Part shown: positions 789 to 54,032 of the stretch, piece by piece | Layout of the letters: every line of letters starts with the position of its first letter | Numbering within the stretch: the stretch's first letter is position 1 | From: a virus | Direction: 5' to 3' (one strand) | DNA length: 64,000 nt | Virus record (IMG/VR): IMGVR_UViG_3300013233_000773 | Notes under the pieces: model-generated | Database searches by the model: none | What the model saw: the letters and a program-made list of their open reading frames with translations, nothing else | Told to the model about the DNA's origin: nothing | Program-made: the position numbers and the translations under genes

Positions 789-1271
789 TCAGTCGCCGAC
801 CTCCATAACCTCCTCGGCACCCTCCACCGCGATATGGAACAGCTCGTTTGTCACCGTCGGAGGCCATGGCAGCTCGGCCACGATCTCCTCGTAGAACAGC
901 AACGAAAACCTGGCCTGCCTATCTCCGAACGACTCCACAAGCGGCATAAGCGTGAGCCTGGTCGGAAGGTTAATGCCTGCCCGGACCGCAGCAGACCGCA
1001 CACAGGACCTTATAGCTTCGTCCGTGAACCCGATGTGGTGTCTGTTCGCGACGGCATTCATCCTGTCCAGGACCTTCGCGAACCACATGGGTGTGGCCAG
1101 GAAGGATCCTGCCTCGCATCCCGCCTTGTCATAGCACTCGTCGCAGAACGGCCCCTCGCCGTCCACGAACAATGAATCGTCCCTGCGTCCGATCCTTCCG
1201 GTCGGGCTTCCACAGCGACAGCAGACCTCGACGTTGGCGCGTCCAATCCTCTTCATCCCATGATCCTCCAT
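789..1271 (-). CDS. hypothetical protein with CxxC/CxxC zinc-binding motif
   Basis: CCRCGS...CDECY; start at 1271 overlaps the upstream stop (TGATG). Confidence 0.6.
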   Translation of the reverse strand: MEDHGMKRIGRANVEVCCRCGSPTGRIGRRDDSLFVDGEGPFCDECYDKAGCEAGSFLATPMWFAKVLDRMNAVANRHHIGFTDEAIRSCVRSAAVRAGINLPTRLTLMPLVESFGDRQARFSLLFYEEIVAELPWPPTVTNELFHIAVEGAEEVMEVGD

Positions 1272-2062
1272 CAGAAGGCCCTCACCACCTGCGGGCGCGG
1301 AACGTTCCTGGACCACACCAGCTTGGTCGCGCGCCTGATCTCGGTGGCACCTCCCTTCCTGGACCACAGGACGACGTAGGAGCCATTGTCCAGGGCGTTC
1401 CTTACGGCCCCGTCCGACACGCCCAGCCTGCCCGCTATCTGATACTGGGACAAACCATCCTTCACTAGCGGCAGAACCTGCTCGGCAGTCACCCTAGGTC
1501 TTCGCTTCCGCGTCCTTACTCCCTTCTTCTCCAGGACGGTCCTCCTGATCCGGCCATGCAGCAGCTGCCGGTCCCTCACGACGTGTCCATCCGGCGGCCT
1601 GACCTTCTCGTCGACCGTCCAGACGACCTGTCTGAAGGCCTTTGGGTCGATGGACCATATCGAGCAGACCCTAGTAACGTCGAGGTTTCTGATACAGTCC
1701 TCTGCGCAGGTTATCTCGTCGGCGCGGATGAATCTCCAGTTCGGAACGACGTTCCTTGCATAGAGGTACTTGTCCTCATGGGTCTGCAGGTGGAGCGGCT
1801 GGACCTCGACGTGCTCCACGGCTCCGACCGCGTACTCGCGCTCGCCGTCGAACTCGATGCTGTCGTCAAGTATCACCCGGAACTCGCATAGATATCTGCG
1901 TGTCCTCCCCGTGAACCCGTCCTGGTAGTTCGTCCACATGGCGCGGTGTTCCCACCGCTTTACGGAGGGCTTGCTGTCCAGGTAGAGGGCATATCCTAGC
2001 TTCAATAAGGACCGGAACCTGACCAGCCTTGGGTGCTTCACGGGCCTGTAGGTCAGAATCAT
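1271..2062 (-). CDS. TnsA/T4 gp4-like endonuclease-fold protein (degenerate catalytic motifs) with C-terminal HTH
   Basis: FRSLLK...LDSKPSVKRW...GRTRRYLCEF...HVEVQP resembles gp4/TnsA_N; HTH GLSQYQIAGRLGVSDGAVRNAL. Confidence 0.55.
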   Translation of the reverse strand: MILTYRPVKHPRLVRFRSLLKLGYALYLDSKPSVKRWEHRAMWTNYQDGFTGRTRRYLCEFRVILDDSIEFDGEREYAVGAVEHVEVQPLHLQTHEDKYLYARNVVPNWRFIRADEITCAEDCIRNLDVTRVCSIWSIDPKAFRQVVWTVDEKVRPPDGHVVRDRQLLHGRIRRTVLEKKGVRTRKRRPRVTAEQVLPLVKDGLSQYQIAGRLGVSDGAVRNALDNGSYVVLWSRKGGATEIRRATKLVWSRNVPRPQVVRAF

Positions 2063-2078: not shown

Positions 2079-2783
2079 CTAGTGAGAGAGGTAGAACTCC
2101 TTGCCCTTTGCGCCTATGTACATGCTGCCTGTGCGGTTCTGGATCGACCATGTGCCAGACGTCTGCACCTGTTCCTTGCCGATGATCTCGCGCAGCTTGT
2201 CCCTGGAGCTCAACAGCTTACCGCCCAGCTGGCACTCGGACGCGGGCACGAACTCGCCGTCGCAGCTGACCGGATGGTTCGGGGAACAGGGCAGGAAGTC
2301 ATACTCAGTCTGCAGGACAGTTACAGGCTGACTGCGGTCGTTCCACCTCATTCTTGGCCTGGTGGGACGGAAGGGCGTGACTATCTTCTTGCTGGACCCA
2401 TAGAGGTCCTCTGCAGTGACTGGCCCGTCCACGGACAGTATCTGCGTCCCACCGGGATAGCAGAACAGGAACGACTCGGCGCCGAAGATGTCACCGATCC
2501 TCGTCGTGGCCGGATCCCACTTTACGTCCTTGACCCAATAGGCGTCCGCCGGAAGGGGATAGGTGCTGACCAGTGGTTGCGTGTTGAAGAAGGCGTAGCG
2601 CTCCTCGAGCGGGAAATATTGCGCCACGAAGTCGCCAGTGGTCCTAATCGCCTGCTCAAGCTGGGCTTCGGTCAACTCGACTCTGACAACCGGGTGGCCA
2701 AGCATAGATAGGACTTCAAACTTCATTGGGTCGCTTCGCAGCTTGAGGACCACCGGCAGTTGTTCTGGCCCAATGATAGCCAT
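2079..2783 (-). CDS. neck protein gp13-like N-terminal domain fused to a C-terminal Hint domain
   Basis: LGHPVVRVELTEAQLEQAI resembles the T4 gp13 N-terminus; from residue 108 CYPGGTQILSVDG...CSPNHP...YLSH-stop. Confidence 0.75.
   Translation of the reverse strand: MAIIGPEQLPVVLKLRSDPMKFEVLSMLGHPVVRVELTEAQLEQAIRTTGDFVAQYFPLEERYAFFNTQPLVSTYPLPADAYWVKDVKWDPATTRIGDIFGAESFLFCYPGGTQILSVDGPVTAEDLYGSSKKIVTPFRPTRPRMRWNDRSQPVTVLQTEYDFLPCSPNHPVSCDGEFVPASECQLGGKLLSSRDKLREIIGKEQVQTSGTWSIQNRTGSMYIGAKGKEFYLSH
2082..2462 (-). other. Hint (intein-like) domain, 127 aa, no endonuclease, no terminal Asn
   Basis: Block A Cys1, block B SxxH, F/G-like end GTWSIQ...YLSH followed directly by TAG. Confidence 0.75.
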
Positions 2784-2799
2784 AGCTATCCTCCAGACC

Positions 2800-2807
2800 T
2801 ATCTTTG
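2800..2807 (-). promoter_or_regulatory. CAAAGATA putative late promoter element
   Basis: 16 nt upstream of the neck gene ATG; same 8-mer recurs upstream of other genes. Confidence 0.6.
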
Positions 2808-2833: not shown

Positions 2834-4378
2834 ATGACGAAGCTCGACGATCCAGAATGGTTGCACGACGCCTACGTCGCCAAGGGTATGAGCACCACTG
2901 AGATAGCCAAGCTAGTAAACAGGTCGGCTAGACTGGTCAGCATGAAGCTGAAGAAGCACGGCATACCGGCAAGGACAGCCTCCCAGGCCGCGCTCAAGAA
3001 GTCCAAGGAGATCTCAGAGCGCACCAGGAATAGATGGCGCGAAGAAGAATACAGGAAGAAGGTCACCGAATCGGTGCGCGACGCCTACCGAAACGACGAA
3101 CTAAGGACCAGGTGCAGGACGGCCTCCACGGAACACTGGCAAAGCGAGGACTCCAGAATCAAGGCTTCTACCGCCTCCAGGAAGGCCTGGAAGGAATCAG
3201 GGAAGGACAGGCGCGAGACGGCATCGAGGAACGCCAGAAAGAACGCCCCCTCCGCAGAGGAGACCAGGGCAAGATGGCAGGATGGCGCGTATAGGAGAAA
3301 GGTCAGCGAGGGTGTCCGGAAGGTATGCGAGGACTCCGCGTGGAGAGAAGAAGCGTCCGCAAGAAGCACCAGGCTGTGGGCCGATGAAGCATACCGCAGC
3401 AAGGTCTCGAAGTCTCTCGAGAAGGCAAGAAGGAAGCCTGAATATGCCCATAGACTGGCCCTCGGCAGATTGAGGCAGGAGCGTACTTCCTATGAGGAGA
3501 GAGTCCTGTCCGCCATCCTGAAGGAGGCCGGAATAGGATCTAGAAAGGTCGTCATTGGACCGCATGAGTTCGACCTACAGGTGGACGTCGATCCCCCGTT
3601 GCTGATCGAGGTGCAGGGAGAGTACTGGCACCCTCCTGGCAGGCCGCACGATGCTGCAAAGAGGACCTACTTTCAGAGATACCTCTCTGACAGATATCGC
3701 CTGATGTACGTGCACGACTACGAGTTCATGGCCGAGGGGCTCATTGTGCAGAGACTCAGGGAGGCCGGGATCGACCTGACCGTGCGCAGGATCTCCGCCA
3801 GACAGCTCTCCTTCAGGACCGTCGAAGCGGAACTGTACCGTGACTTCTATGCCAGATATCACTACATCGGCAACAGGGGCCGATGGGGATTTTCGGTCGG
3901 AGGCTTCATGGACGATAGGCTCGTCTGCTGCGTGACCTATGCCGGCTGCACAAGGAAGGAGGCCGCTACCAGGCTGGGTGCCAGGCCCTCGGAGGTGCGT
4001 GAACTCGTCCGGCTGTGCCGTCATCCCTTATATCGCTGCCGGAACATGCTGAGCAGGCTCATTGCGGAGTCGATCAGGATGGTCCGTGCCGAACGTCCTG
4101 GCCTGAAGTGGCTCATATCGTACGCGGACGGCGATAGGGGCCATTCTGGGACAGTCTATCGCGCCTCCGGCTGGCAGAAGGACGGTACGGTCAGAAGCAG
4201 CTACTGCTACATGAAGGATGGCTGTTCCGTACACAAGAAGACGATGTGGGACCGCGCAAGGCGCATGGGGACGTCAGAGAGCGAATATTCCGTGGCGCAT
4301 GGCTTCAGGAAGGTCCTATGTGGGTCGAAGACGAGATATGTGCTGGACCTTTCTACTAGGAGGCAGCCTGCTTCTTGA
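2834..4378 (+). CDS. Hef-like homing endonuclease (HTH + basic helical repeats + DUF559/Vsr-type nuclease) fused to Mom-like GNAT domain
   Basis: FDLQVD...LIEVQGEYWH...DAAK nuclease motifs; YHYIG...ELVRLC...ISYADGDRGHSGTVYRASGW Mom-like motifs; opposite strand to neighbours. Confidence 0.75.
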   Translation: MTKLDDPEWLHDAYVAKGMSTTEIAKLVNRSARLVSMKLKKHGIPARTASQAALKKSKEISERTRNRWREEEYRKKVTESVRDAYRNDELRTRCRTASTEHWQSEDSRIKASTASRKAWKESGKDRRETASRNARKNAPSAEETRARWQDGAYRRKVSEGVRKVCEDSAWREEASARSTRLWADEAYRSKVSKSLEKARRKPEYAHRLALGRLRQERTSYEERVLSAILKEAGIGSRKVVIGPHEFDLQVDVDPPLLIEVQGEYWHPPGRPHDAAKRTYFQRYLSDRYRLMYVHDYEFMAEGLIVQRLREAGIDLTVRRISARQLSFRTVEAELYRDFYARYHYIGNRGRWGFSVGGFMDDRLVCCVTYAGCTRKEAATRLGARPSEVRELVRLCRHPLYRCRNMLSRLIAESIRMVRAERPGLKWLISYADGDRGHSGTVYRASGWQKDGTVRSSYCYMKDGCSVHKKTMWDRARRMGTSESEYSVAHGFRKVLCGSKTRYVLDLSTRRQPAS

Positions 4379-4949
4379 TGACTGCTATGCCGAGGTTCTG
4401 CCTATTCACGTAGATGAGTTCTGCGTCCTGTCTACTGTCCGAGAAGTCGTGGACGCACTGTTCGAGATATGGATGTACGTGGTGTGCAACGTCGTGAATG
4501 AGCATAAGGCCTCCTATCTTCAGTAGCCTTATGCTGTCGACCATGTCCATCATGCAGCCGTCATAGCTATGGTCTCCGTCAATGTGCACCATGTCCAGGT
4601 TGAGCCCGTCTGGAAGTTTCTTGATCAGGTCGTGCGATGATCCGTCCAGGTAATATACTTCATGCTTTACTCCGTATTGCTCCTCTTTTTCATGTATGAG
4701 CTTCAGGATGTGTTCGTGGCTTCCCCTACCTGTTCCGCCGTATTCTTTTCCCCAGGTATCACAGAGATATAGTTGCAGTGGCCTGCTCTTGAGGGCATGT
4801 CGCAGGGACTTCCCTTCCTGTACTCCTATCTCGAGGAAGGAGGTCACTTCATTGTTGTCGGTAAGCCATGCTATCATGGCGTGGCACGATACTTTCGGAC
4901 CTGTCTTCCAGAACTCTTCAAATGATTTGTCGTCAAAGTGCATCGTCAA
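4356..4949 (-). CDS. class I SAM-dependent methyltransferase (Methyltransf_24-like)
   Basis: FLEIGVQEGKS, DMVHIDGDHSYDG, GGLMLIHD. Confidence 0.85.
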   Translation of the reverse strand: MTMHFDDKSFEEFWKTGPKVSCHAMIAWLTDNNEVTSFLEIGVQEGKSLRHALKSRPLQLYLCDTWGKEYGGTGRGSHEHILKLIHEKEEQYGVKHEVYYLDGSSHDLIKKLPDGLNLDMVHIDGDHSYDGCMMDMVDSIRLLKIGGLMLIHDVAHHVHPYLEQCVHDFSDSRQDAELIYVNRQNLGIAVIKKQAAS

Positions 4950-5527
4950 TCTCCGAATCCGTACCTTAGCCTGTCAAGGTCTTCACCATAGATACGCTGG
5001 ACAAGCACTTTCTCGTCCGGTCCATACATTTCCGCATAATGGCAGGTCCTCTTCACGTTCAGACGCGGCAGCTCCCTTGGCGCAAGTCCGAGCTTTCTTC
5101 GAAGCCTCCCATAGTCCTGTTCTATGGTCTCGTAATGTAGAACGTCGTTTACGACTAGCTCGTCGGACTCATCGACTATCTGTGACCATTGTGGGATGCA
5201 GTGCCATGCTTGAAAGGCGTCATCGAACTTCCTGTCCGCGACCATCCTTAGGAACTCGTGAAAGCCAAGTCCGCGCCCAACCTCGTGCCAGCTCGAGACT
5301 GCCCGGTCGTATGGGTTCCGGACTATGGTGAACGAGTGACGACGGCTCCATGCTTCGGTCCCGAAGCACTCGCGCATGTATGCTCCACGGCCCTTATCTT
5401 GGTAGGCCGGAAGCAGGTTCTCTATGTCTCCATCTGGACCCATATATAGCGTGATTTCTTCTTCAAGGGAGCGTCTAACGCTGGTATGCGCAGTCTTTGG
5501 TAGTGCCACAAATATTGCCTGTGTCAT
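4946..5527 (-). CDS. sulfotransferase (Sulfotransfer_2-like)
   Basis: FVALPKTAHTSV and FTIVRNPYDRAVSSW PAPS-binding motifs. Confidence 0.8.
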   Translation of the reverse strand: MTQAIFVALPKTAHTSVRRSLEEEITLYMGPDGDIENLLPAYQDKGRGAYMRECFGTEAWSRRHSFTIVRNPYDRAVSSWHEVGRGLGFHEFLRMVADRKFDDAFQAWHCIPQWSQIVDESDELVVNDVLHYETIEQDYGRLRRKLGLAPRELPRLNVKRTCHYAEMYGPDEKVLVQRIYGEDLDRLRYGFGD

Positions 5528-6991: not shown

Positions 6992-8698
6992 CTACTTGCC
7001 TATCGGCGGAATCTTAAAGTTACCTGGTTCAAAGAAAAACTTAAGGTCCGTAGAGCCAAGCACTATTATCTCGTTGATACCGATCCCTGCACTGCCGGGC
7101 TCCGCGAGCCTATTCGTCTGTATTATGTCGTCCGCCGGCTCAAAGACGTCCACATACCTTACGCCCGGCAGCTCCTGCAGGGCTCCATAGACGTGCGACA
7201 CGAACAGGCCCGTGCCCATGTCGAAGTTGCGTATGTCGAACAGGCTGTGTATCGCATTCTCGACTGCGACGCGGACTGCCCCCGCGTCAGCGTTCCTGGA
7301 CATGACTATCGTAGCCTTCACGTTCACGGGCTTGACCGCACCGTCAAACACGCGTACCTCGTCCGTCAGCACGTTCAGGGATTCAAAGAAGGTAACGAGG
7401 GCCTTCTTGAGTCCTACGCTCGGAGCGACCGGCACGTTGTCGGGACCGTTCGACAGCGCGAACAGCTCGACTATGTTGCGGTTTATGAACTCGTTCCTGA
7501 TGATCTGCGCTGCTTCCTCGTCGGAGTCAGCAGCCCTGCACCGGCTGGCCACGCCGTCAACGTCCTGGTCAACGCCCGTCCGCACGACTCCCACGGCCTT
7601 GGCCACCGACCCGAACACCGGATGGTTGAACTCCTGAGCCAGCAGGGCATAGTCCTCGCCCGTGACGGCACTGCCCTGCGTGGCGAACTCCCTCGGCGCA
7701 CGCCGCTTAGCCTGTTCAATTGTCTCCTCGTCCAGGCCTCCGGTCGACGGCTCCGGGTTTGTGAACGTGACCTGCACAGCCGCAGTGGACGGCGGTTCGG
7801 GGTTCATCGACCTCGACTCGTTAATGGTCCCGGTGCCTATCCTACCGCGCACACCCCCTCCGGTCCTATATGTGACCGTGATCCTCTGCCCCGCGAGCGG
7901 TGCCCTGCCAGCCCTGTCGTCTCCAAACACTATCCTGGTCTCGACGTCCAGATGCCGAACCTCGAACACCGGATCGTCCGCAGAGGCCTTCCCGATCACG
8001 TCCGCCCTCCTCCATTGCTCGGACGAGGATCCGGAGGACACGACCACGTCTATAGGCTCGTCCAGGACGTTCGGCAGCCCTATCGTCAAAAACTGATCGG
8101 GGCCTCCCTGGGAGACCACCTCGAGGGGAGTCTCGGTGCGCCCCTCTATGGCGAACGCCACGGTGCCGCGCTTGCCAGTGGGGATCACCACCGGAGAAAC
8201 GAAGTCACCGGGTGCGCGGAAGATCTCGAACGTCAATGGCTGAAGGTCTGGGCCGGCGAGCGTGAACGACGTTCCCGCAGGTATCCTGAGTTCCGTCTGT
8301 AGGGGAAGCTCCACAGTGGCTGTCACGTTCACTGTGGCCGGAGTCGCCCGCTGCACCTTCTGCCCGATCAGCTGCAGGTGCTGTATGACGGCCTGCTTGG
8401 TCTGGGCGGTCGGAAGGAAGGCCTCGTCTATAAGGACGTCGCCGCGCTGCGACAGGAGGCCAGCCAAGTAGGAGACCAGCTCCAGCGTCATGATGACGCC
8501 GTTGCTTGCGAAGAAGTCGTTGAAGTCGTCCGGGAAGTAGGTTCTGATGTACTCTATCCCGGCCCGGCGCATCGAGTCGAAGTCGAGCGCGGAGAAGTCC
8601 AGACGGCGCAGCTGCGACGGCGCGAGGGCTACCCCGAGCTCCTCAGGACTGTTCGGCAGGTTGAATATGAACTTACTGGTGTTCTCGGCCACGTCCAC
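6992..8698 (-). CDS. baseplate wedge protein (T4 gp6 / baseplate J-like)
   Basis: LDFSALDFDSM...YFPDDFNDF; FGDDRAGRAP; GGLDEETIEQAKRRAP...AVTGEDY. Confidence 0.9.
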   Translation of the reverse strand: MDVAENTSKFIFNLPNSPEELGVALAPSQLRRLDFSALDFDSMRRAGIEYIRTYFPDDFNDFFASNGVIMTLELVSYLAGLLSQRGDVLIDEAFLPTAQTKQAVIQHLQLIGQKVQRATPATVNVTATVELPLQTELRIPAGTSFTLAGPDLQPLTFEIFRAPGDFVSPVVIPTGKRGTVAFAIEGRTETPLEVVSQGGPDQFLTIGLPNVLDEPIDVVVSSGSSSEQWRRADVIGKASADDPVFEVRHLDVETRIVFGDDRAGRAPLAGQRITVTYRTGGGVRGRIGTGTINESRSMNPEPPSTAAVQVTFTNPEPSTGGLDEETIEQAKRRAPREFATQGSAVTGEDYALLAQEFNHPVFGSVAKAVGVVRTGVDQDVDGVASRCRAADSDEEAAQIIRNEFINRNIVELFALSNGPDNVPVAPSVGLKKALVTFFESLNVLTDEVRVFDGAVKPVNVKATIVMSRNADAGAVRVAVENAIHSLFDIRNFDMGTGLFVSHVYGALQELPGVRYVDVFEPADDIIQTNRLAEPGSAGIGINEIIVLGSTDLKFFFEPGNFKIPPIGK

Positions 8699-8699
8699 C

Positions 8700-9128
8700 T
8701 CACTGTCTATTGCCGGCGGATGCCGTCGGCAGGTTGAGCTCGAGAAGAAGGTCGGTGTTCTCGCCCGCGTTCGGAGCCGAGAAACGGTCCAGCACGAACC
8801 TTCCGAAGAGCTTCACCGTAAGTAGCTCCTCATCCGCCGCGATGAACACGTCAGTGAGCTCCACCCGGCTCTCGAAGCTCTCCACTGCCCGCATGATGTC
8901 CAGACGTAGTTCGCTCAAGGACGTGCTCGCTATCGACTCGAACAGGAACGAGCGAAGCGGAGTTCCGAAGTCCGGACGCATCACTCTCTCGCCAGGAGCG
9001 GTCAACAGAAGCTGTATCATGTCGTTCTTGATCAGCTTCTCGTCCAGCTGTCTGGACATCACCTTCTCGTTACCGCCCGTGAACGGAGCATTGTAGCCGA
9101 AGAACCTGGCCATGCCAATGGTCCTCAC
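8700..9128 (-). CDS. baseplate wedge subunit gp25-like (GPW_gp25)
   Basis: LLLTAPGERVMRPDFGT...FESRV. Confidence 0.9.
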   Translation of the reverse strand: MRTIGMARFFGYNAPFTGGNEKVMSRQLDEKLIKNDMIQLLLTAPGERVMRPDFGTPLRSFLFESIASTSLSELRLDIMRAVESFESRVELTDVFIAADEELLTVKLFGRFVLDRFSAPNAGENTDLLLELNLPTASAGNRQ

Positions 9129-9865
9129 CGCACCAGCTCGCGGACATCCAGGAGGTCGGCGTATAGCCTACCAGACCTCCCTATCTCCTCATTGAGCCCC
9201 GCTATCAGTTCGGAGCGCTCTGCCACCAGCTCACCCTCGCGTTCCTCCAGCAGGAAGACTATCTCGTCGCCGGACCCAGCCAGGGCAACCTTGGCCGCCT
9301 CGAGGGCCTTCCTCACCTCGTTCAGTCTGCGCTGGTTCCCTATGACCGCAGCCTTTGCGTCCGCCACCCTATTCTGCGAGGCCTTAAGGTCGGTGATCAG
9401 GCGCGCGAACGTCCTCTCTGACCCATCCACCAGTTTCGCGACCTGCTCGTCATCCAGACCAAGGTCAGACAGGTCCAGCTCGTTCGTGTCCTGCTGAAGG
9501 GACACCGTCTCCGGAACCTGGTCGTCGACGACCTGCTCGACCTGCTCCTCAGGACCGAACTCCAGGATCTGTCCCGACTCAAACTGCTTGCGCCCGTCCA
9601 TGGTCTCGGTACGACCACCGGCTGACACGTTGAAGACAAGCTTGCCCAACGAGTTCCTGCGCACCTTCGGCTCATGAATCCTATCAGGTAGACTCCGCAG
9701 TTCCTCTCCACGAAACAGTTCAAGGATGACCAACGAAGACCTAGGAGGATCCTCGCTGGAGACAAGGAAGGTAATGCTCTGCCCGTCCTCCGGGGTCCTC
9801 GGCAGCTCAGGTAGGTACAATGCAGTCGGAAATCCGATGATCACTGGTTGGCTCCGATGTCGCAC
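9125..9865 (-). CDS. hypothetical coiled-coil baseplate-region protein
   Basis: Overlaps both neighbours; helical C-terminus. Confidence 0.65.
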   Translation of the reverse strand: MRHRSQPVIIGFPTALYLPELPRTPEDGQSITFLVSSEDPPRSSLVILELFRGEELRSLPDRIHEPKVRRNSLGKLVFNVSAGGRTETMDGRKQFESGQILEFGPEEQVEQVVDDQVPETVSLQQDTNELDLSDLGLDDEQVAKLVDGSERTFARLITDLKASQNRVADAKAAVIGNQRRLNEVRKALEAAKVALAGSGDEIVFLLEEREGELVAERSELIAGLNEEIGRSGRLYADLLDVRELVR

Positions 9866-12000
9866 GACGTCACTATCTTTTCCTCTATCTCCTTGATCTC
9901 CTCGAGTGACTCGGCCCGGTCCTCAGGCTCGCGCTTGCCCTGCTTGACCTCCTCGGGATCGATGACATCGCTACCACCTGGCACCGTCGGAACGTTGAGG
10001 AAGAGGGCACCGCTGGTCAGCTTCATCCTACCACCGCCACCGCGCATGTCCACCGACGTCCCTGCATTCAGGCTGATCCTACTGCTGGCCTTGACGGCGA
10101 CGTCCTCTCCGATCACCTCCACCCTCTTGCTGGAGAATATCTGGACAGGACCGCCCGCCACAGTCTTGATGACTATCGAGCCATTGCCGTCATGGATACA
10201 GATGTACTGTTCCGACCCTTCCGCCCCGCGCCACACGCCCATCTTCTCGTTTCGCGAGAACCACATTCCACGGTGATCAATGTCAACCAGCTCGGTCCAT
10301 GGGCCGTCCGATCCGAACCTGCCGTCCCGCATCTCCACGCCCTGATTAAGGCCTATCTCGGCAGCTTCGAAGGGCTTGGGCTCAGGTCTCCTGCCATTGT
10401 CGCCACCAGCTGCAGTCTTCAGGCGGATATAGCCGTTGAACTTGTCCAGCTTGAGGTGATAGGTGTCCTTCTCCGGATCCTCGACCATGGCGGCCTTCAG
10501 GGCGAACTCGTTCTCGGCCAGCCCGCGCCAGTTTCTGCACAGGTCTCCCTTCAGGTCGGTGCACATCATGACGTAGTCGAACCGGTCGTTGAGCTCAATC
10601 ACCTTGGACTTCGGCGAATACCACCTAGTGGTGTTCAGCTCGTCCTTGTCGTTCGCCTCTATGGCGAAGCCTCGCGAGGACTCCCTCTCGCTCGGCTCGC
10701 TCTCCCAGGAGCGGACGGACTTGAGCATCCAGCCGTTCCCGCGCGGTGCCTCCTCCGTGTCAGCGTTGCGCGGGTCCGTTCCCCTGTCGTCCAGGACGAA
10801 CTTTGAGCCCCACCTAGTGACTATCCTGATCTGCCTTGCATCCCTTCCGGTCCAGTCCGAGTCTATCTCCCCGTCCGGCCCAGCACCTAGCTCGTCAATG
10901 AGTAGCCTCTTATAGAACTTGTCCTCCTCTGGGTGGAAGCCCATGTCCATAGCCTGGATGAGGTGCCCGCCCTTGGTGCGCAGCTTAACCCATCGTTCGT
11001 CCGTATTGTCCCACTTCGACAGGACGCGCGGCTCTCCATATTCACCGTCGCGGGAACGTCCTCCGACGCTGTCGCAGCCGGACATGGCCCCGCCCTTCTG
11101 TGCCCAACCAACGTCGCGCATCTCGAACTTGTGCCCGGCCCTGGTCCTGATCTCGTAGCGCCGCTGGTCCCCATCCTCAGAGACCGGGACATCCTCGTTG
11201 AACAGCCTAGTGAGGTACTTGTACCTCTTGACCTCGAAGGGCCTATCCTTGTCGAAGTCTCCCTCGAACTCTCCAAGATCCCCGTCCCCACCAGATCCTC
11301 CTTCTCCTGCCTTCGACCACCAGTACCCGACGTCGGAGTGGATGGCGTAGGTTCCGTACTTGGACGTCCTGACCATGTACTTCCTGTCGGGATCGTTGAC
11401 GAGCGGTGATTTCCCCTTCTGAAACTGCTTCATGGAGACGGCGTCGGTCCCGGTCGGGGCTGCCCGGTCGGCGTGTTCGACCGGGAAGAAGCCCACCGAG
11501 CTCACCATGTCGAACGACCCGTAGCGGTCACGGGTTCCGAGCGACATGGGCCTGCGGTCCTTGGGAAGGTACTCGACCAGCGCGTCGTCCGGCCTCTCGT
11601 CAGCAGTCTCGTCCTCCTTGAGCGCAAGCGGCGGCTCGACGTACAGTCCTTCGAGCGGATATCTCTTGCGGCGCGTGCCCATCGCAAATCCGAACCAGAG
11701 GATGTTGTACGGGTGATTCTTCTCGAACTGCACCCAGACGACGTCCCCTATGACTGGATGATACCAGGTTCCGGCGTTCTTTCCTCCGAACCATGGCGCA
11801 CGCTCCGCCCATGGGCACTGCTCGGGCTTGAGGTCGAAGTCATGCAGCTCCGGGCACTTTACGCGCACCCTGTGCATCTGGAGCGGATCGTTGGTCTCCA
11901 CGACGAGTGCGCGGTAGAATCCGTGGAACCGGTCTGAAAGTGCCCTTGTGCGCTCGGCGTTGAACTTCTGCCATATGCGTGATATGTTGTCTTCGAACAT
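9841..12000 (-). CDS. baseplate central spike gp5/VgrG-like protein
   Basis: OB-fold motif YRALVVETNDPLQMHRVRVKCP...PVIGDVVWVQFE; RTRAGH/TKGGH repeats; beta-helix-like C-terminus. Confidence 0.85.
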   Translation of the reverse strand: MFEDNISRIWQKFNAERTRALSDRFHGFYRALVVETNDPLQMHRVRVKCPELHDFDLKPEQCPWAERAPWFGGKNAGTWYHPVIGDVVWVQFEKNHPYNILWFGFAMGTRRKRYPLEGLYVEPPLALKEDETADERPDDALVEYLPKDRRPMSLGTRDRYGSFDMVSSVGFFPVEHADRAAPTGTDAVSMKQFQKGKSPLVNDPDRKYMVRTSKYGTYAIHSDVGYWWSKAGEGGSGGDGDLGEFEGDFDKDRPFEVKRYKYLTRLFNEDVPVSEDGDQRRYEIRTRAGHKFEMRDVGWAQKGGAMSGCDSVGGRSRDGEYGEPRVLSKWDNTDERWVKLRTKGGHLIQAMDMGFHPEEDKFYKRLLIDELGAGPDGEIDSDWTGRDARQIRIVTRWGSKFVLDDRGTDPRNADTEEAPRGNGWMLKSVRSWESEPSERESSRGFAIEANDKDELNTTRWYSPKSKVIELNDRFDYVMMCTDLKGDLCRNWRGLAENEFALKAAMVEDPEKDTYHLKLDKFNGYIRLKTAAGGDNGRRPEPKPFEAAEIGLNQGVEMRDGRFGSDGPWTELVDIDHRGMWFSRNEKMGVWRGAEGSEQYICIHDGNGSIVIKTVAGGPVQIFSSKRVEVIGEDVAVKASSRISLNAGTSVDMRGGGGRMKLTSGALFLNVPTVPGGSDVIDPEEVKQGKREPEDRAESLEEIKEIEEKIVTSCDIGANQ

Positions 12001-30149: not shown

Positions 30150-31004
30150 CTATCTTTGCGCCGCAGCCGCTCCTATTGTCTTGAACGTCTGAAAGGTCCT
30201 GCCGTATTCCGCCAACAGGCCCCTTATCCTGTACCTCGTTGCGAAGGCTCTGATGGCATCGCCGTCGAAGACCGGTCTACGGGCACGGACGCGGGAGACG
30301 TAGGAGACGTTCTCTAGGACGTATGGACACATGGACAGGTCTATCAGGGCCCTATTGCGCCTGTACGTCCCGTCGCCGCGCAGGTCGAAGAACTCCAGCC
30401 TGTGGGCATAGTCGGCGATGATCTTTGCTGCCCTCTTTGGCCCAATCCCGTCGTAGCCAGGAATGTTGTCGGCCTTCTCCCCAACGAACGACTTCACCTC
30501 TACTGGATCGAGATCAACGCAGGCGAGTCGGCCTTTCTGCATCGGATTGTATACCTGCACGCCGCGCAAGTTGAATTCTAGCTGCCTAAAGTCACTATCG
30601 GAGCTAACGATCACGGCCTCGTCTCGTCCTCGTTGTCTACAGAAGGCATATACGAGGTCGTCCGCCTCCTGCCCGGCCCGGACGTAGTTCAGGCAGTTCA
30701 TGTGTTGAGCTAGGGATAGACAGGCCTCCGAACACCTCTGCAGCAGTTCAGTGACTTGTTCACGGTCATATCGGCTGTGCGCATTGCGCCCGCACTTGTA
30801 GGTCGGCAATATCTTGCGCCGCCACAGTCCATCCTTTGGCGTGTCCCAGAACAGATGAACGTGTCTAGGCCTGAAGCGTCTTACCCAGGAGTTGAGGAAC
30901 CGGAAGAAGATCAGGACATGGTCCTCGCCGGCCGGATCGGAGAGGCCGGCGAAGACCGCCCTGTACATGCTGTTCCTGGCATCGACCAGAAGATGTTCCG
31001 TCAT
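30150..31004 (-). CDS. 5'-3' exonuclease / flap endonuclease (T4 RNase H-like)
   Basis: LLVDARN, YKCGR, EADD, SSDSDF, GEKADNIPGYDGIGPKRA. Confidence 0.9.
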   Translation of the reverse strand: MTEHLLVDARNSMYRAVFAGLSDPAGEDHVLIFFRFLNSWVRRFRPRHVHLFWDTPKDGLWRRKILPTYKCGRNAHSRYDREQVTELLQRCSEACLSLAQHMNCLNYVRAGQEADDLVYAFCRQRGRDEAVIVSSDSDFRQLEFNLRGVQVYNPMQKGRLACVDLDPVEVKSFVGEKADNIPGYDGIGPKRAAKIIADYAHRLEFFDLRGDGTYRRNRALIDLSMCPYVLENVSYVSRVRARRPVFDGDAIRAFATRYRIRGLLAEYGRTFQTFKTIGAAAAQR

Positions 31005-39236: not shown

Positions 39237-39534
39237 CGTTCTCCTCCACACTGTGCACGTCAAGGACACGTTCAAGGTCCTTCCTTGTTCGAATACTCCG
39301 CGCGAGCTTCGCGGCGGACTGCGGATCATATGAGCCAACCTTGACCACGTCCTCCTGTGGAACCTGTATAAGGGTATGATTCCTGGCGAGCAGCAGCATA
39401 TCACTGCCCTCCACCCCGGCCACGACCGTCCAGGTACCCATGGGAGAGGCCGACGCCCCCGCAGGCCCGGAGACCCACGCCACGCGCCGCACGGACAGCA
39501 GCCTTACGAAATCGAACCTTCCAATCATGGTCAA
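39229..39534 (-). CDS. hypothetical protein
   Basis: Overlaps the recA start; fills gap. Confidence 0.45.
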   Translation of the reverse strand: MTMIGRFDFVRLLSVRRVAWVSGPAGASASPMGTWTVVAGVEGSDMLLLARNHTLIQVPQEDVVKVGSYDPQSAAKLARSIRTRKDLERVLDVHSVEENDG

Positions 39535-39571
39535 AGATATCTACGGAAAACCGGAACGGCGGAGAATCTCC

Positions 39572-49713: not shown

Positions 49714-49721
49714 CAAAGATA
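49714..49721 (+). promoter_or_regulatory. CAAAGATA putative late promoter element
   Basis: 48 nt upstream of the tail-tip cassette. Confidence 0.6.
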
Positions 49722-53980: not shown

Positions 53981-54032
53981 TCAAGGACTCTCCGGGGATG
54001 CGCCTGGTCCGACCCGATATCTTTGTCCAGCG

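Follow-up and report, generated by a model that had tools for sequence, protein, structure and literature searches.

A T4 gp13-type neck gene divided by a mobile cassette with a Hint domain at one new end and a predicted mini zincin at the other

We analysed a 64,000-nucleotide stretch of viral DNA from IMG/VR record IMGVR_UViG_3300013233_000773, hereafter the window, in which a neck gene of the phage T4 gp13 type is interrupted. The open reading frame (ORF) at 2079-2783 on the minus strand specifies 234 amino acids (aa), of which the first 107 belong to a gp13-type neck protein and the rest make up a Hint domain that reaches to a terminal His and a stop codon. When the whole record (140.5 kb, 59.6% GC) was searched with an unsplit relative, residues 95-246 of gp13 were found at G000:C1:57563-58018(-) with 81% identity. 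They are part of a second gene, which has its own AGGAGG ribosome-binding site and ATG and which places about 83 non-gp13 residues ahead of the gp13 sequence. We call the two products the N-piece and the C-piece. The intervening cassette consists, in order, of the Hint domain with its stop codon, one or more homing endonuclease genes, and a start codon followed by a predicted mini zincin; it extends 2.9 kb past the start of the window, where it ends in the zincin-gp13C gene, for a total insert of 4.9 kb (Table 1). The first-pass annotation, made from the window alone, held that the rest of gp13 is not downstream. This was mistaken and the cassette arrangement was missed, since the second half lay outside the window.

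Table 1. Coordinates of the interrupted neck gene, the cassette and the associated signals
Feature	Position	Strand	Remarks
gp13-type neck protein, N-terminal half	2463..2783	-	codons 1-107, ending in ..GAESFLF
Complete Hint domain, cassette-encoded	2082..2462	-	codons 108-234: Cys108, block B S-P-N-H at 167-170, last residue His234, no Asn
TAG stop	2079..2081	-	directly after His234
TnsA-like (PD-(D/E)xK) endonuclease remnant with C-terminal helix-turn-helix (HTH)	1271..2062	-	hhalign, phrog_218 and HTH matches
Cassette interior, two ORFs of unknown function	789-1367 (192 aa); 1-444 (partial)	-	
GT2 glycosyltransferase and Mom-type endonuclease	beyond window start, before the C-piece	+	
zincin-gp13C gene (C-piece), 222 aa	G000:C1:57563-58228	-	4.9 kb downstream on the same strand, about 2.9 kb past the window's first base
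GGAGG ribosome-binding site	2790-2794	-	8 nt before the N-piece ATG
CAAAGATA motif	2800-2807	-	upstream of the N-piece, beyond GGAGG
CAAAGATA copies	2800-2807(-), 30151-30158(-), 39532-39539(+), 49714-49721(+), 54018-54025(-)		

The assignment of the split gene to the T4 gp13 neck/adaptor family (PF26809) is based on both its sequence and its position in the neck-tail module. Residues 1-107 of the N-piece are 81% identical to residues 1-113 of the unsplit 246-aa relative P0042 and match a gp13N hidden Markov model (HMM) at 3e-59, in agreement with the first-pass annotation, which had recognised these 107 residues as gp13-like. PF26809 (Phage_T4_gp13) is a precomputed annotation on the unsplit relatives as well as on C-pieces, and the T4 gp13 structures 9mkb and 9lu4 are matched weakly by profile (E=0.2). 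At the relatives' loci, gp15-like, sheath and tube genes lie downstream of gp13; a sheath gene lies downstream in the genome studied here. The homologs recovered with the N-piece fall into three groups. Those of the first group are unsplit proteins of about 246 aa that carry PF26809 and share 70-80% identity with the query over residues 1-107. Proteins of the second group, about 235 aa long, have the architecture of the query from end to end at 39-69% identity. Members of the third, about 367 aa, resemble the second group with the addition of a true mini-intein at GAE|SFLF, four residues ahead of the Hint-like tail.

The third group therefore contains N-pieces with two Hint domains four residues apart (L007:10001-11053, which is P0012; P0004-P0007; P0025): a mini-intein of the form C...HN|S at GAE|SFLF and then, after SFLF, the Asn-less Hint of the cassette. 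The GAE|SFLF intein site is occupied in unsplit alleles too (P0109, P0101). Two different selfish elements thus target one conserved stretch of gp13.

The Hint domain of the N-piece was examined by structure prediction. As a single sequence the ORF had no match in Pfam or PHROGs beyond PT-HINT at E=0.22. Residues 108-234, modelled with AlphaFold2 from an alignment of 40 relatives, form an all-beta domain with a predicted local distance difference test (pLDDT) score above 90. The best PDB matches returned by Foldseek were 2lwy, which is a bacterial intein-like (BIL) domain of C. thermocellum, the fused gp41-1 intein 6riz, the NrdJ-1 intein (8ubs also matched) and Hedgehog 1at0. The template modelling (TM) score against 6riz was 0.83 over the entire 127-aa target, and those against PT-HINT structure clusters were 0.85-0.87. 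By sequence, the profile of the 40 relatives matches 2lwy at E=5e-4. Since the structural matches run across the whole domain, the fold is complete and not an N-intein fragment. The first-pass annotation had called it a complete Hint domain with neither a terminal Asn nor a C-extein in cis, and our analysis bears this out.

The residues expected to act in catalysis are retained among copies that are only about 20% identical to one another. Position 108 is Cys or Ser in all 40 relatives; in block B, position 167 is Thr in 39 and Ser in one, position 169 is Asn in 39 and Ser in one, and His170 is invariant. The residues that would carry out an N-S (or N-O) acyl shift are under strong purifying selection. 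The chain stops right after the last strand, on His (35), Lys (3) or Arg (2), at the position that precedes the catalytic Asn of inteins, and the stop codon falls in the same alignment column in all relatives. Outside this rule are L015:9983-10792, whose last residue at that point is Glu and whose ORF continues for 25 aa, and L022:9992-10714, which ends in Ser. We also observed a motif, T-P-[F/Y]-G, that is kept at 95% or more across both Hint subtypes and is not a standard intein block; it reads TPFR here (P0001 residues 136-139, window ~2367-2378).

The domain has the Hint fold, N-terminal Cys or Ser and block B T-x-x-H of canonical inteins. A C-terminal Asn (or Gln or Asp) followed in cis by a C-extein beginning with Cys, Ser or Thr is missing, as in all relatives the chain terminates immediately after the penultimate-His position. 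One explanation raised in the first-pass annotation is that the amber codon is read through as Gln, and the DNA of this copy does read CAC TAG ACC, which would create a canonical His-Gln/Thr junction. The homologs, however, terminate with TAG, TAA (in one case TAA TAA) or TGA, the residues after the stop (Leu, Asn, another stop and so on) are not conserved, and the 70-codon extension that was pointed out overlaps the endonuclease gene in another frame. The varied stop codons indicate a true stop and not a recoded codon. A second explanation is a Hedgehog-style transfer of the N-terminal part to a nucleophile. Hedgehog-type Hints lack the Asn, and 1at0 is among the structural matches, but its similarity is confined to the Hint part; the ORF closes with the last Hint strand and so has no C-terminal region for recognition of a sterol or other adduct, and a dedicated partner half-gene is always present. 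A third is that the gene is a decaying pseudogene. The first-pass annotation itself had argued against a decayed relic, and correctly so: the same His-stop architecture recurs in more than 40 diverged, intact proteins with conserved catalytic residues, which also speaks against an assembly error, and no intact gp13 is found elsewhere, even in a complete genome. Readthrough and decay are refuted, and we regard the three readings taken together as very improbable. The suggestion that the Hint forms a thioester for ligation fares better in part. The acyl-shift residues are indeed conserved, whereas a partner in the form of another virion protein or a small molecule is not supported; because the C-half is a separate gene with its own N-terminal zincin, the natural partner of such a thioester would be gp13's own C-half.

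The non-gp13 leader of the C-piece contains HELAH followed twelve residues later by a third His, as well as a Trp. Used as a single query, C-piece residues 1-100 gave no match owing to a word-index limit, and a four-sequence profile then gave 32 homologs. The first 62 residues were modelled as three strands and two helices, one of which bears the HExxH, with pLDDT 79-91. A profile of 30 leader homologs matches the minigluzincins proabylysin and selecase at E ~1e-3; Foldseek ranks 4jiu (proabylysin) first (prob 1.00, E=0.012), with Wss1 and Spartan lower in the list, and the Atlas structure neighbours are SprT-like (TM 0.73). One relative carries a precomputed PF10263 annotation. Across the 32 homologs D15, E39, H42 and H50 are invariant, and position 38 is His in 26 and Asp in 6. 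With HExxH and a third zinc ligand on a fold of beta-sheet and active-site helix, the leader is predicted to be a mini zincin of the SprT/minigluzincin-like kind.

The sequence at the junction between leader and extein is also constrained. Ahead of Asn108, P3 is Ile, Phe, Leu or Val in 40 of 43 sequences, P2 is Ala in 29 and P1 is Ala or Gly in 31; the spacing from HExxH to Asn108 is mostly 42-52 residues, and residue +1 of the C-half is an invariant Asn. The opening residues of the extein recur in the linker of this zincin subtype (P0146 residues 70-87 on G000:C1, and the C-pieces of L007 and L009), ..DVGN-I-NVGN-IAG|NVGNVTG, which could be a duplicated target sequence or a pseudo-substrate. 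The C-piece was also inspected for a C-intein. A 'VVHN' ahead of the extein looked like block G, yet it is followed by Ile and does not occur in the relatives, and as it is not conserved it is not a C-intein. In place of the C-intein (blocks F/G with His-Asn) and nucleophilic +1 residue of a split intein, the C-piece has a zincin leader and Asn at +1.

We determined how regularly the two modules occur together by running four HMMs (gp13N, Hint, zincin and gp13C) over 80 IMG/VR loci together with those retrieved beforehand. Among loci with enough downstream DNA (23 in all), gp13N-Hint is followed on the same strand, 0.8-4.9 kb away, by zincin-gp13C in 22 of 22 from the first HMM scan and also in L096. 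Neither module is present at any of the 60 unsplit loci. The 140-kb record has no second intact gp13 and no further Hint or zincin copies, and the same is true of five relatives' records, including a 341-kb genome that is rated 100% complete and has terminal repeats. In the first-pass annotation a search for a separate gp13 C-part or a full-length paralog had been proposed; the former exists 4.9 kb downstream and the latter was not found. Without an intact backup gene, the neck protein must come from these two pieces. In the HMM scans, which took in flanks of up to 10 kb on each side at all loci, the modules turned up only in gp13 ORFs. Exhaustive phmmer searches for the cassette in other host genes, which have limited reach, gave gp13-linked proteins and weak generic Hint matches, and a search seeded with the cassette endonuclease, likewise of limited reach, gave gp13 loci only. 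Removal of the insert at the RNA level, as a group I or II intron, was considered and rejected, as Rfam gave no match (E up to 0.1) anywhere in the 7 kb spanning the two pieces.

The boundaries of the insert were defined by comparing the split locus L029 with the unsplit locus L058, whose flanking DNA is about 80% identical. Their similarity extends over codons 1-107, is then lost, and is regained 3.4 kb later at codon 108. The Hint domain, the endonuclease gene and the zincin with its linker therefore all belong to the insertion, which lies exactly at F107|N108. In a tree built from 71 distinct rows of concatenated extein sequence, split and unsplit alleles are intermingled. The 13 state changes required, of which well-supported branches force at least 8, come close to the mean of 16.2 for shuffled states. 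Extein identity is hardly related to Hint identity (rho 0.08) or zincin identity (rho 0.13): between the window's locus and L017, identity is 87% for the exteins, 23% for the Hints and 24% for the zincins. The Hint subtypes (..FYL[ST]H and ..EP[IV]L[IV]H) are found in varying pairings with the zincin subtypes, so the two ends of the cassette reassort. The element is sporadically present at one precise site and contains an endonuclease gene of putative activity, as homing elements do, and the host halves are placed on two ORFs separated by a homing endonuclease gene, as in fractured genes. Judged from these sequence comparisons, the Hint-endonuclease-zincin unit is a mobile cassette and not a relic.

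The ORF between the pieces in relatives, usually one of 300-500 aa, encodes HTH repeats and a Tn7 TnsA-like PD-(D/E)xK nuclease domain; it is sometimes inverted, or replaced or joined by a Mom-type endonuclease. The corresponding ORF in the window (1271-2062) aligns with ten cassette endonucleases over residues 5-105 (hhalign, prob 96.9%, E=1.8e-10). It is without the N-terminal HTH array of the relatives and has E..EVQ where they have D..EVK, a substitution by which the window's copy of the endonuclease is probably inactive. The TnsA-like nuclease domain of this ORF, and of intervening ORFs in L003, L005, L011, L017, L020 and other loci, is matched by PHROG 218/14892, which bears the label 'head closure (connector)'. 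The PHROG 218 label probably arose as guilt by association with the split neck gene, and it calls for correction, as the intervening gene appears to be an endonuclease. By the same token, 'truncated' gp13 genes in phage metagenomes may be functional halves.

How a working neck protein is obtained from the two pieces is a question of chemistry. Canonical splicing, in cis or in trans, is impossible, because there is no Asn, no C-intein, and Asn at +1. Both modules nevertheless keep their catalytic residues at about 20% overall identity, which argues that both are enzymes, and the mixed Hint and zincin types suggest that each acts on its own chain. We propose that each module trims itself off and that the two gp13 halves co-fold, unligated, into the neck protein, a reading whose chances we put at about even. 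In this scheme the Hint would carry out an N-S acyl shift at Phe107-Cys108, and the thioester, with neither Asn nor C-extein in cis, would be resolved by scarless release of gp13(1-107). In the C-piece, zincin-gp13(108-246), the zincin would cut its own C-terminal linker at [I/F/L]-A-[A/G] | N-[I/V]-G-N and so free the native N-terminus of the C-half. The junction motif (a hydrophobic residue, Ala, then Ala or Gly) and its spacing from the active site fit a self-cleavage site, and Wss1, a minigluzincin-like protease, self-cleaves (PMC4559962). With the Hint following its substrate and the protease preceding its own, scarless release is possible on both sides.

For the reassembly step, the architecture of gp13 is informative. 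In T4 gp13, domain I comprises the two helices at each end of the chain, and a peripheral swing domain is made up of residues 54-188 (PMC12929629). In our models two bundle helices fall in each piece and the split lies inside the peripheral domain, which makes non-covalent reassembly of the halves plausible. Each half would contribute two helices to the four-helix bundle of the adaptor, the two together would form the peripheral domain, and the product would be a working neck subunit. Complex prediction with the two full-length pieces gave weak support for their binding (score 0.56, against 0.00 for the best control). The mark used was reached by 58 of 80 solved complexes and by 2 of 110 mismatched pairs, and passing scores of 0.60 or less comprised only 7 of those 80 complexes together with both passing mismatches. 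The runs agree in at least 83% of contacts, with a partner pLDDT of at least 68; the pass may reflect memory of the solved T4 gp13 structures.

The same prediction, made with the modules still attached, is consistent with an alternative in which no processing takes place: Hint and zincin would stay on the neck as peripheral decorations or docking domains, with their catalytic motifs as inherited baggage. Bulky additions could be tolerable at a split site in the peripheral swing domain (PMC12929629), and element-derived tails do act as interaction domains in the split NrdA of phage Aeh1 (PMC3045599). But the Cys/Ser, the T-x-N-H, the Glu and the zinc ligands are invariant or nearly so at 19-25% overall identity, which is unexpected for structural domains, and reassortment of the Hint and zincin types argues against a specific Hint-zincin docking pair. 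Given the conserved catalytic residues, we consider unprocessed docking rather improbable.

Several observations weigh against the trimming scheme proposed above. The case for catalysis by either module is drawn from conservation. This copy of the Hint has Ser in place of Thr at 167 and Arg in place of the usual Gly at 139. The Pfam SprT-like match of the C-piece (E=3e-4, 21.1 bits) falls below the gathering cut-off of 25.6 bits, and the zincin, at about 60 folded residues, is to our knowledge smaller than any that has been characterised. The linker between zincin and extein, which should enter the active site, is modelled at pLDDT 43-48. Simple N-terminal cleavage has no obvious need for the conserved terminal His (or Lys or Arg). 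Finally, the split falls in the most conserved stretch of gp13, ..GAESFLF|NVGNVTGIQ.., where a permanent chain break may be less tolerable than co-folding of unligated halves assumes, a point in favour of ligation.

Ligation could proceed in trans through two enzymes. The zincin would bare the amine of Asn108, the halves would dock as they do in native gp13, and the amine would resolve the Phe107 thioester by proximity-driven aminolysis, restoring gp13 to its full 246 aa. The incoming N-terminus would be admitted by the Asn/+1 pocket, which is empty in the truncated Hint. We think this outcome unlikely. Re-ligation by the Asn108 amine is chemically reasonable and would explain the scarless boundaries, the conserved split site and the conserved terminal His, Lys or Arg together, although we doubt that it occurs. 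Both modules retain their catalytic residues, the cassette boundaries are exactly scarless at F107|N108 within the most conserved segment of gp13, and the Hint ends exactly one residue before the missing Asn, on His, Lys or Arg in 40 of 40 relatives. The cassette moves between nearly identical alleles, with no visible adaptation of the exteins, and the non-intein motif T-P-[F/Y]-G, common to both Hint subtypes, could be a docking surface. On the other hand, the predicted new N-terminus is Asn and not a conserved Cys, Ser or Thr, so that the usual transesterification route is unavailable. We know of no in vivo precedent in which a Hint thioester captures an amine. The free reassortment of Hint and zincin types means that they need not cooperate, and in the searches described above the cassette was found only in gp13, where a general ligation device might be expected in many genes. 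There is accordingly only a small chance that the Hint-zincin pair is a natural two-enzyme ligation system, in which co-folding would drive formation of a scarless peptide bond by a route distinct from intein splicing.

The arrangement was compared with the nearest known systems, none of which has a homing cassette bounded by a complete, Asn-less Hint on one side and a zincin leader on the other. Searches of the literature for Hint with metalloprotease, SprT with homing endonuclease, and gp13 intein returned no description of it. In the fractured genes of Dassa et al. (2009, PMC2677866), a phage gene is likewise cut into two ORFs by an insertion bearing a homing endonuclease gene, with a module of the Hint superfamily after the N-terminal host fragment, and the elements are sporadic among close relatives. 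Neither neck/gp13 genes nor proteases are mentioned there. The present case differs in that the N-piece has a complete Hint (blocks A, B, F and G) without the terminal Asn, the C-piece has a mini zincin instead of a C-intein, and the first C-extein residue is Asn rather than Cys, Ser or Thr. In phage Aeh1, mobE similarly splits the essential gene into NrdA-a and NrdA-b; the new C- and N-terminal sequences derived from the element are needed for function, and the product works without RNA or protein splicing (PMC3045599). The Aeh1 tails are short and non-catalytic, whereas here there are two folded domains with conserved catalytic residues on an element that recurs and moves among many phages.

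Cleavage-type Hints (Hedgehog HhC, BIL and PT-HINT), the best structural neighbours of the N-piece domain, share with it the fold, Cys/Ser1 and T-x-x-H; for these as well no splicing is expected, the thioester or ester being consumed by cleavage or by attack of an external nucleophile. In contrast to them, the domain described here has no sterol or adduct region, no toxin or secreted context and nothing downstream, and it lies within a virion gene as part of a homing cassette. With the minigluzincins and the SprT and Wss1-Spartan proteases the leader has in common HExxH, a three-stranded sheet and a third His carried by the following helix, with proabylysin and selecase as its best matches by both sequence profile and fold. 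It differs in having about 60 folded residues, in being fused to half of a structural protein, and in an Asp at the first zinc ligand in 6 of 32 homologs.

Selfish elements in essential genes are known to neutralise the damage they cause by RNA splicing, by protein splicing or by non-catalytic interaction tails. The cassette points to a fourth way, in which two self-processing domains, one on each new end, would return halves with native ends, and the Hint-zincin pairing may represent a novel means of restoring a single protein from a pair of genes. Should the halves only be trimmed, an essential and highly conserved structural protein would tolerate a permanent break, and the modules would provide a compact pair of scarless self-removing tags. 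Should they be rejoined, the pair would represent a new natural protein-ligation chemistry, usable in protein engineering, and a means, differing in mechanism from intein splicing, by which a mobile element repairs its damage at the level of the protein.

The sequence upstream of the N-piece contains the CAAAGATA motif and the GGAGG that the first-pass annotation had reported. The motif occurs five times in the window, where 0.66 copies are expected. Because each of the five copies precedes an RBS-like (ribosome-binding-site-like) GGAG and ATG, by 17-50 nt, we consider CAAAGATA a candidate phage promoter element. No exact copy is present ahead of the C-piece gene.

The window encodes at 2834-4378(+) a Mom-family domain fused to HTH repeats and a Vsr/DUF559-type nuclease, and L008 has Mom-family domains with the same accompaniment at 8252-10078(+) and 9952-10842(+). 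These Mom-HTH-nuclease genes diverge from the start of each gp13 piece, one of them being coupled to the cassette-internal GT2 glycosyltransferase, and relatives have up to four Mom-type genes within 21 kb (L007). A methyltransferase gene and two sulfotransferase-family genes adjoin the neck and tail genes (window 4356-5527(-); L008 6145-7017(-)).

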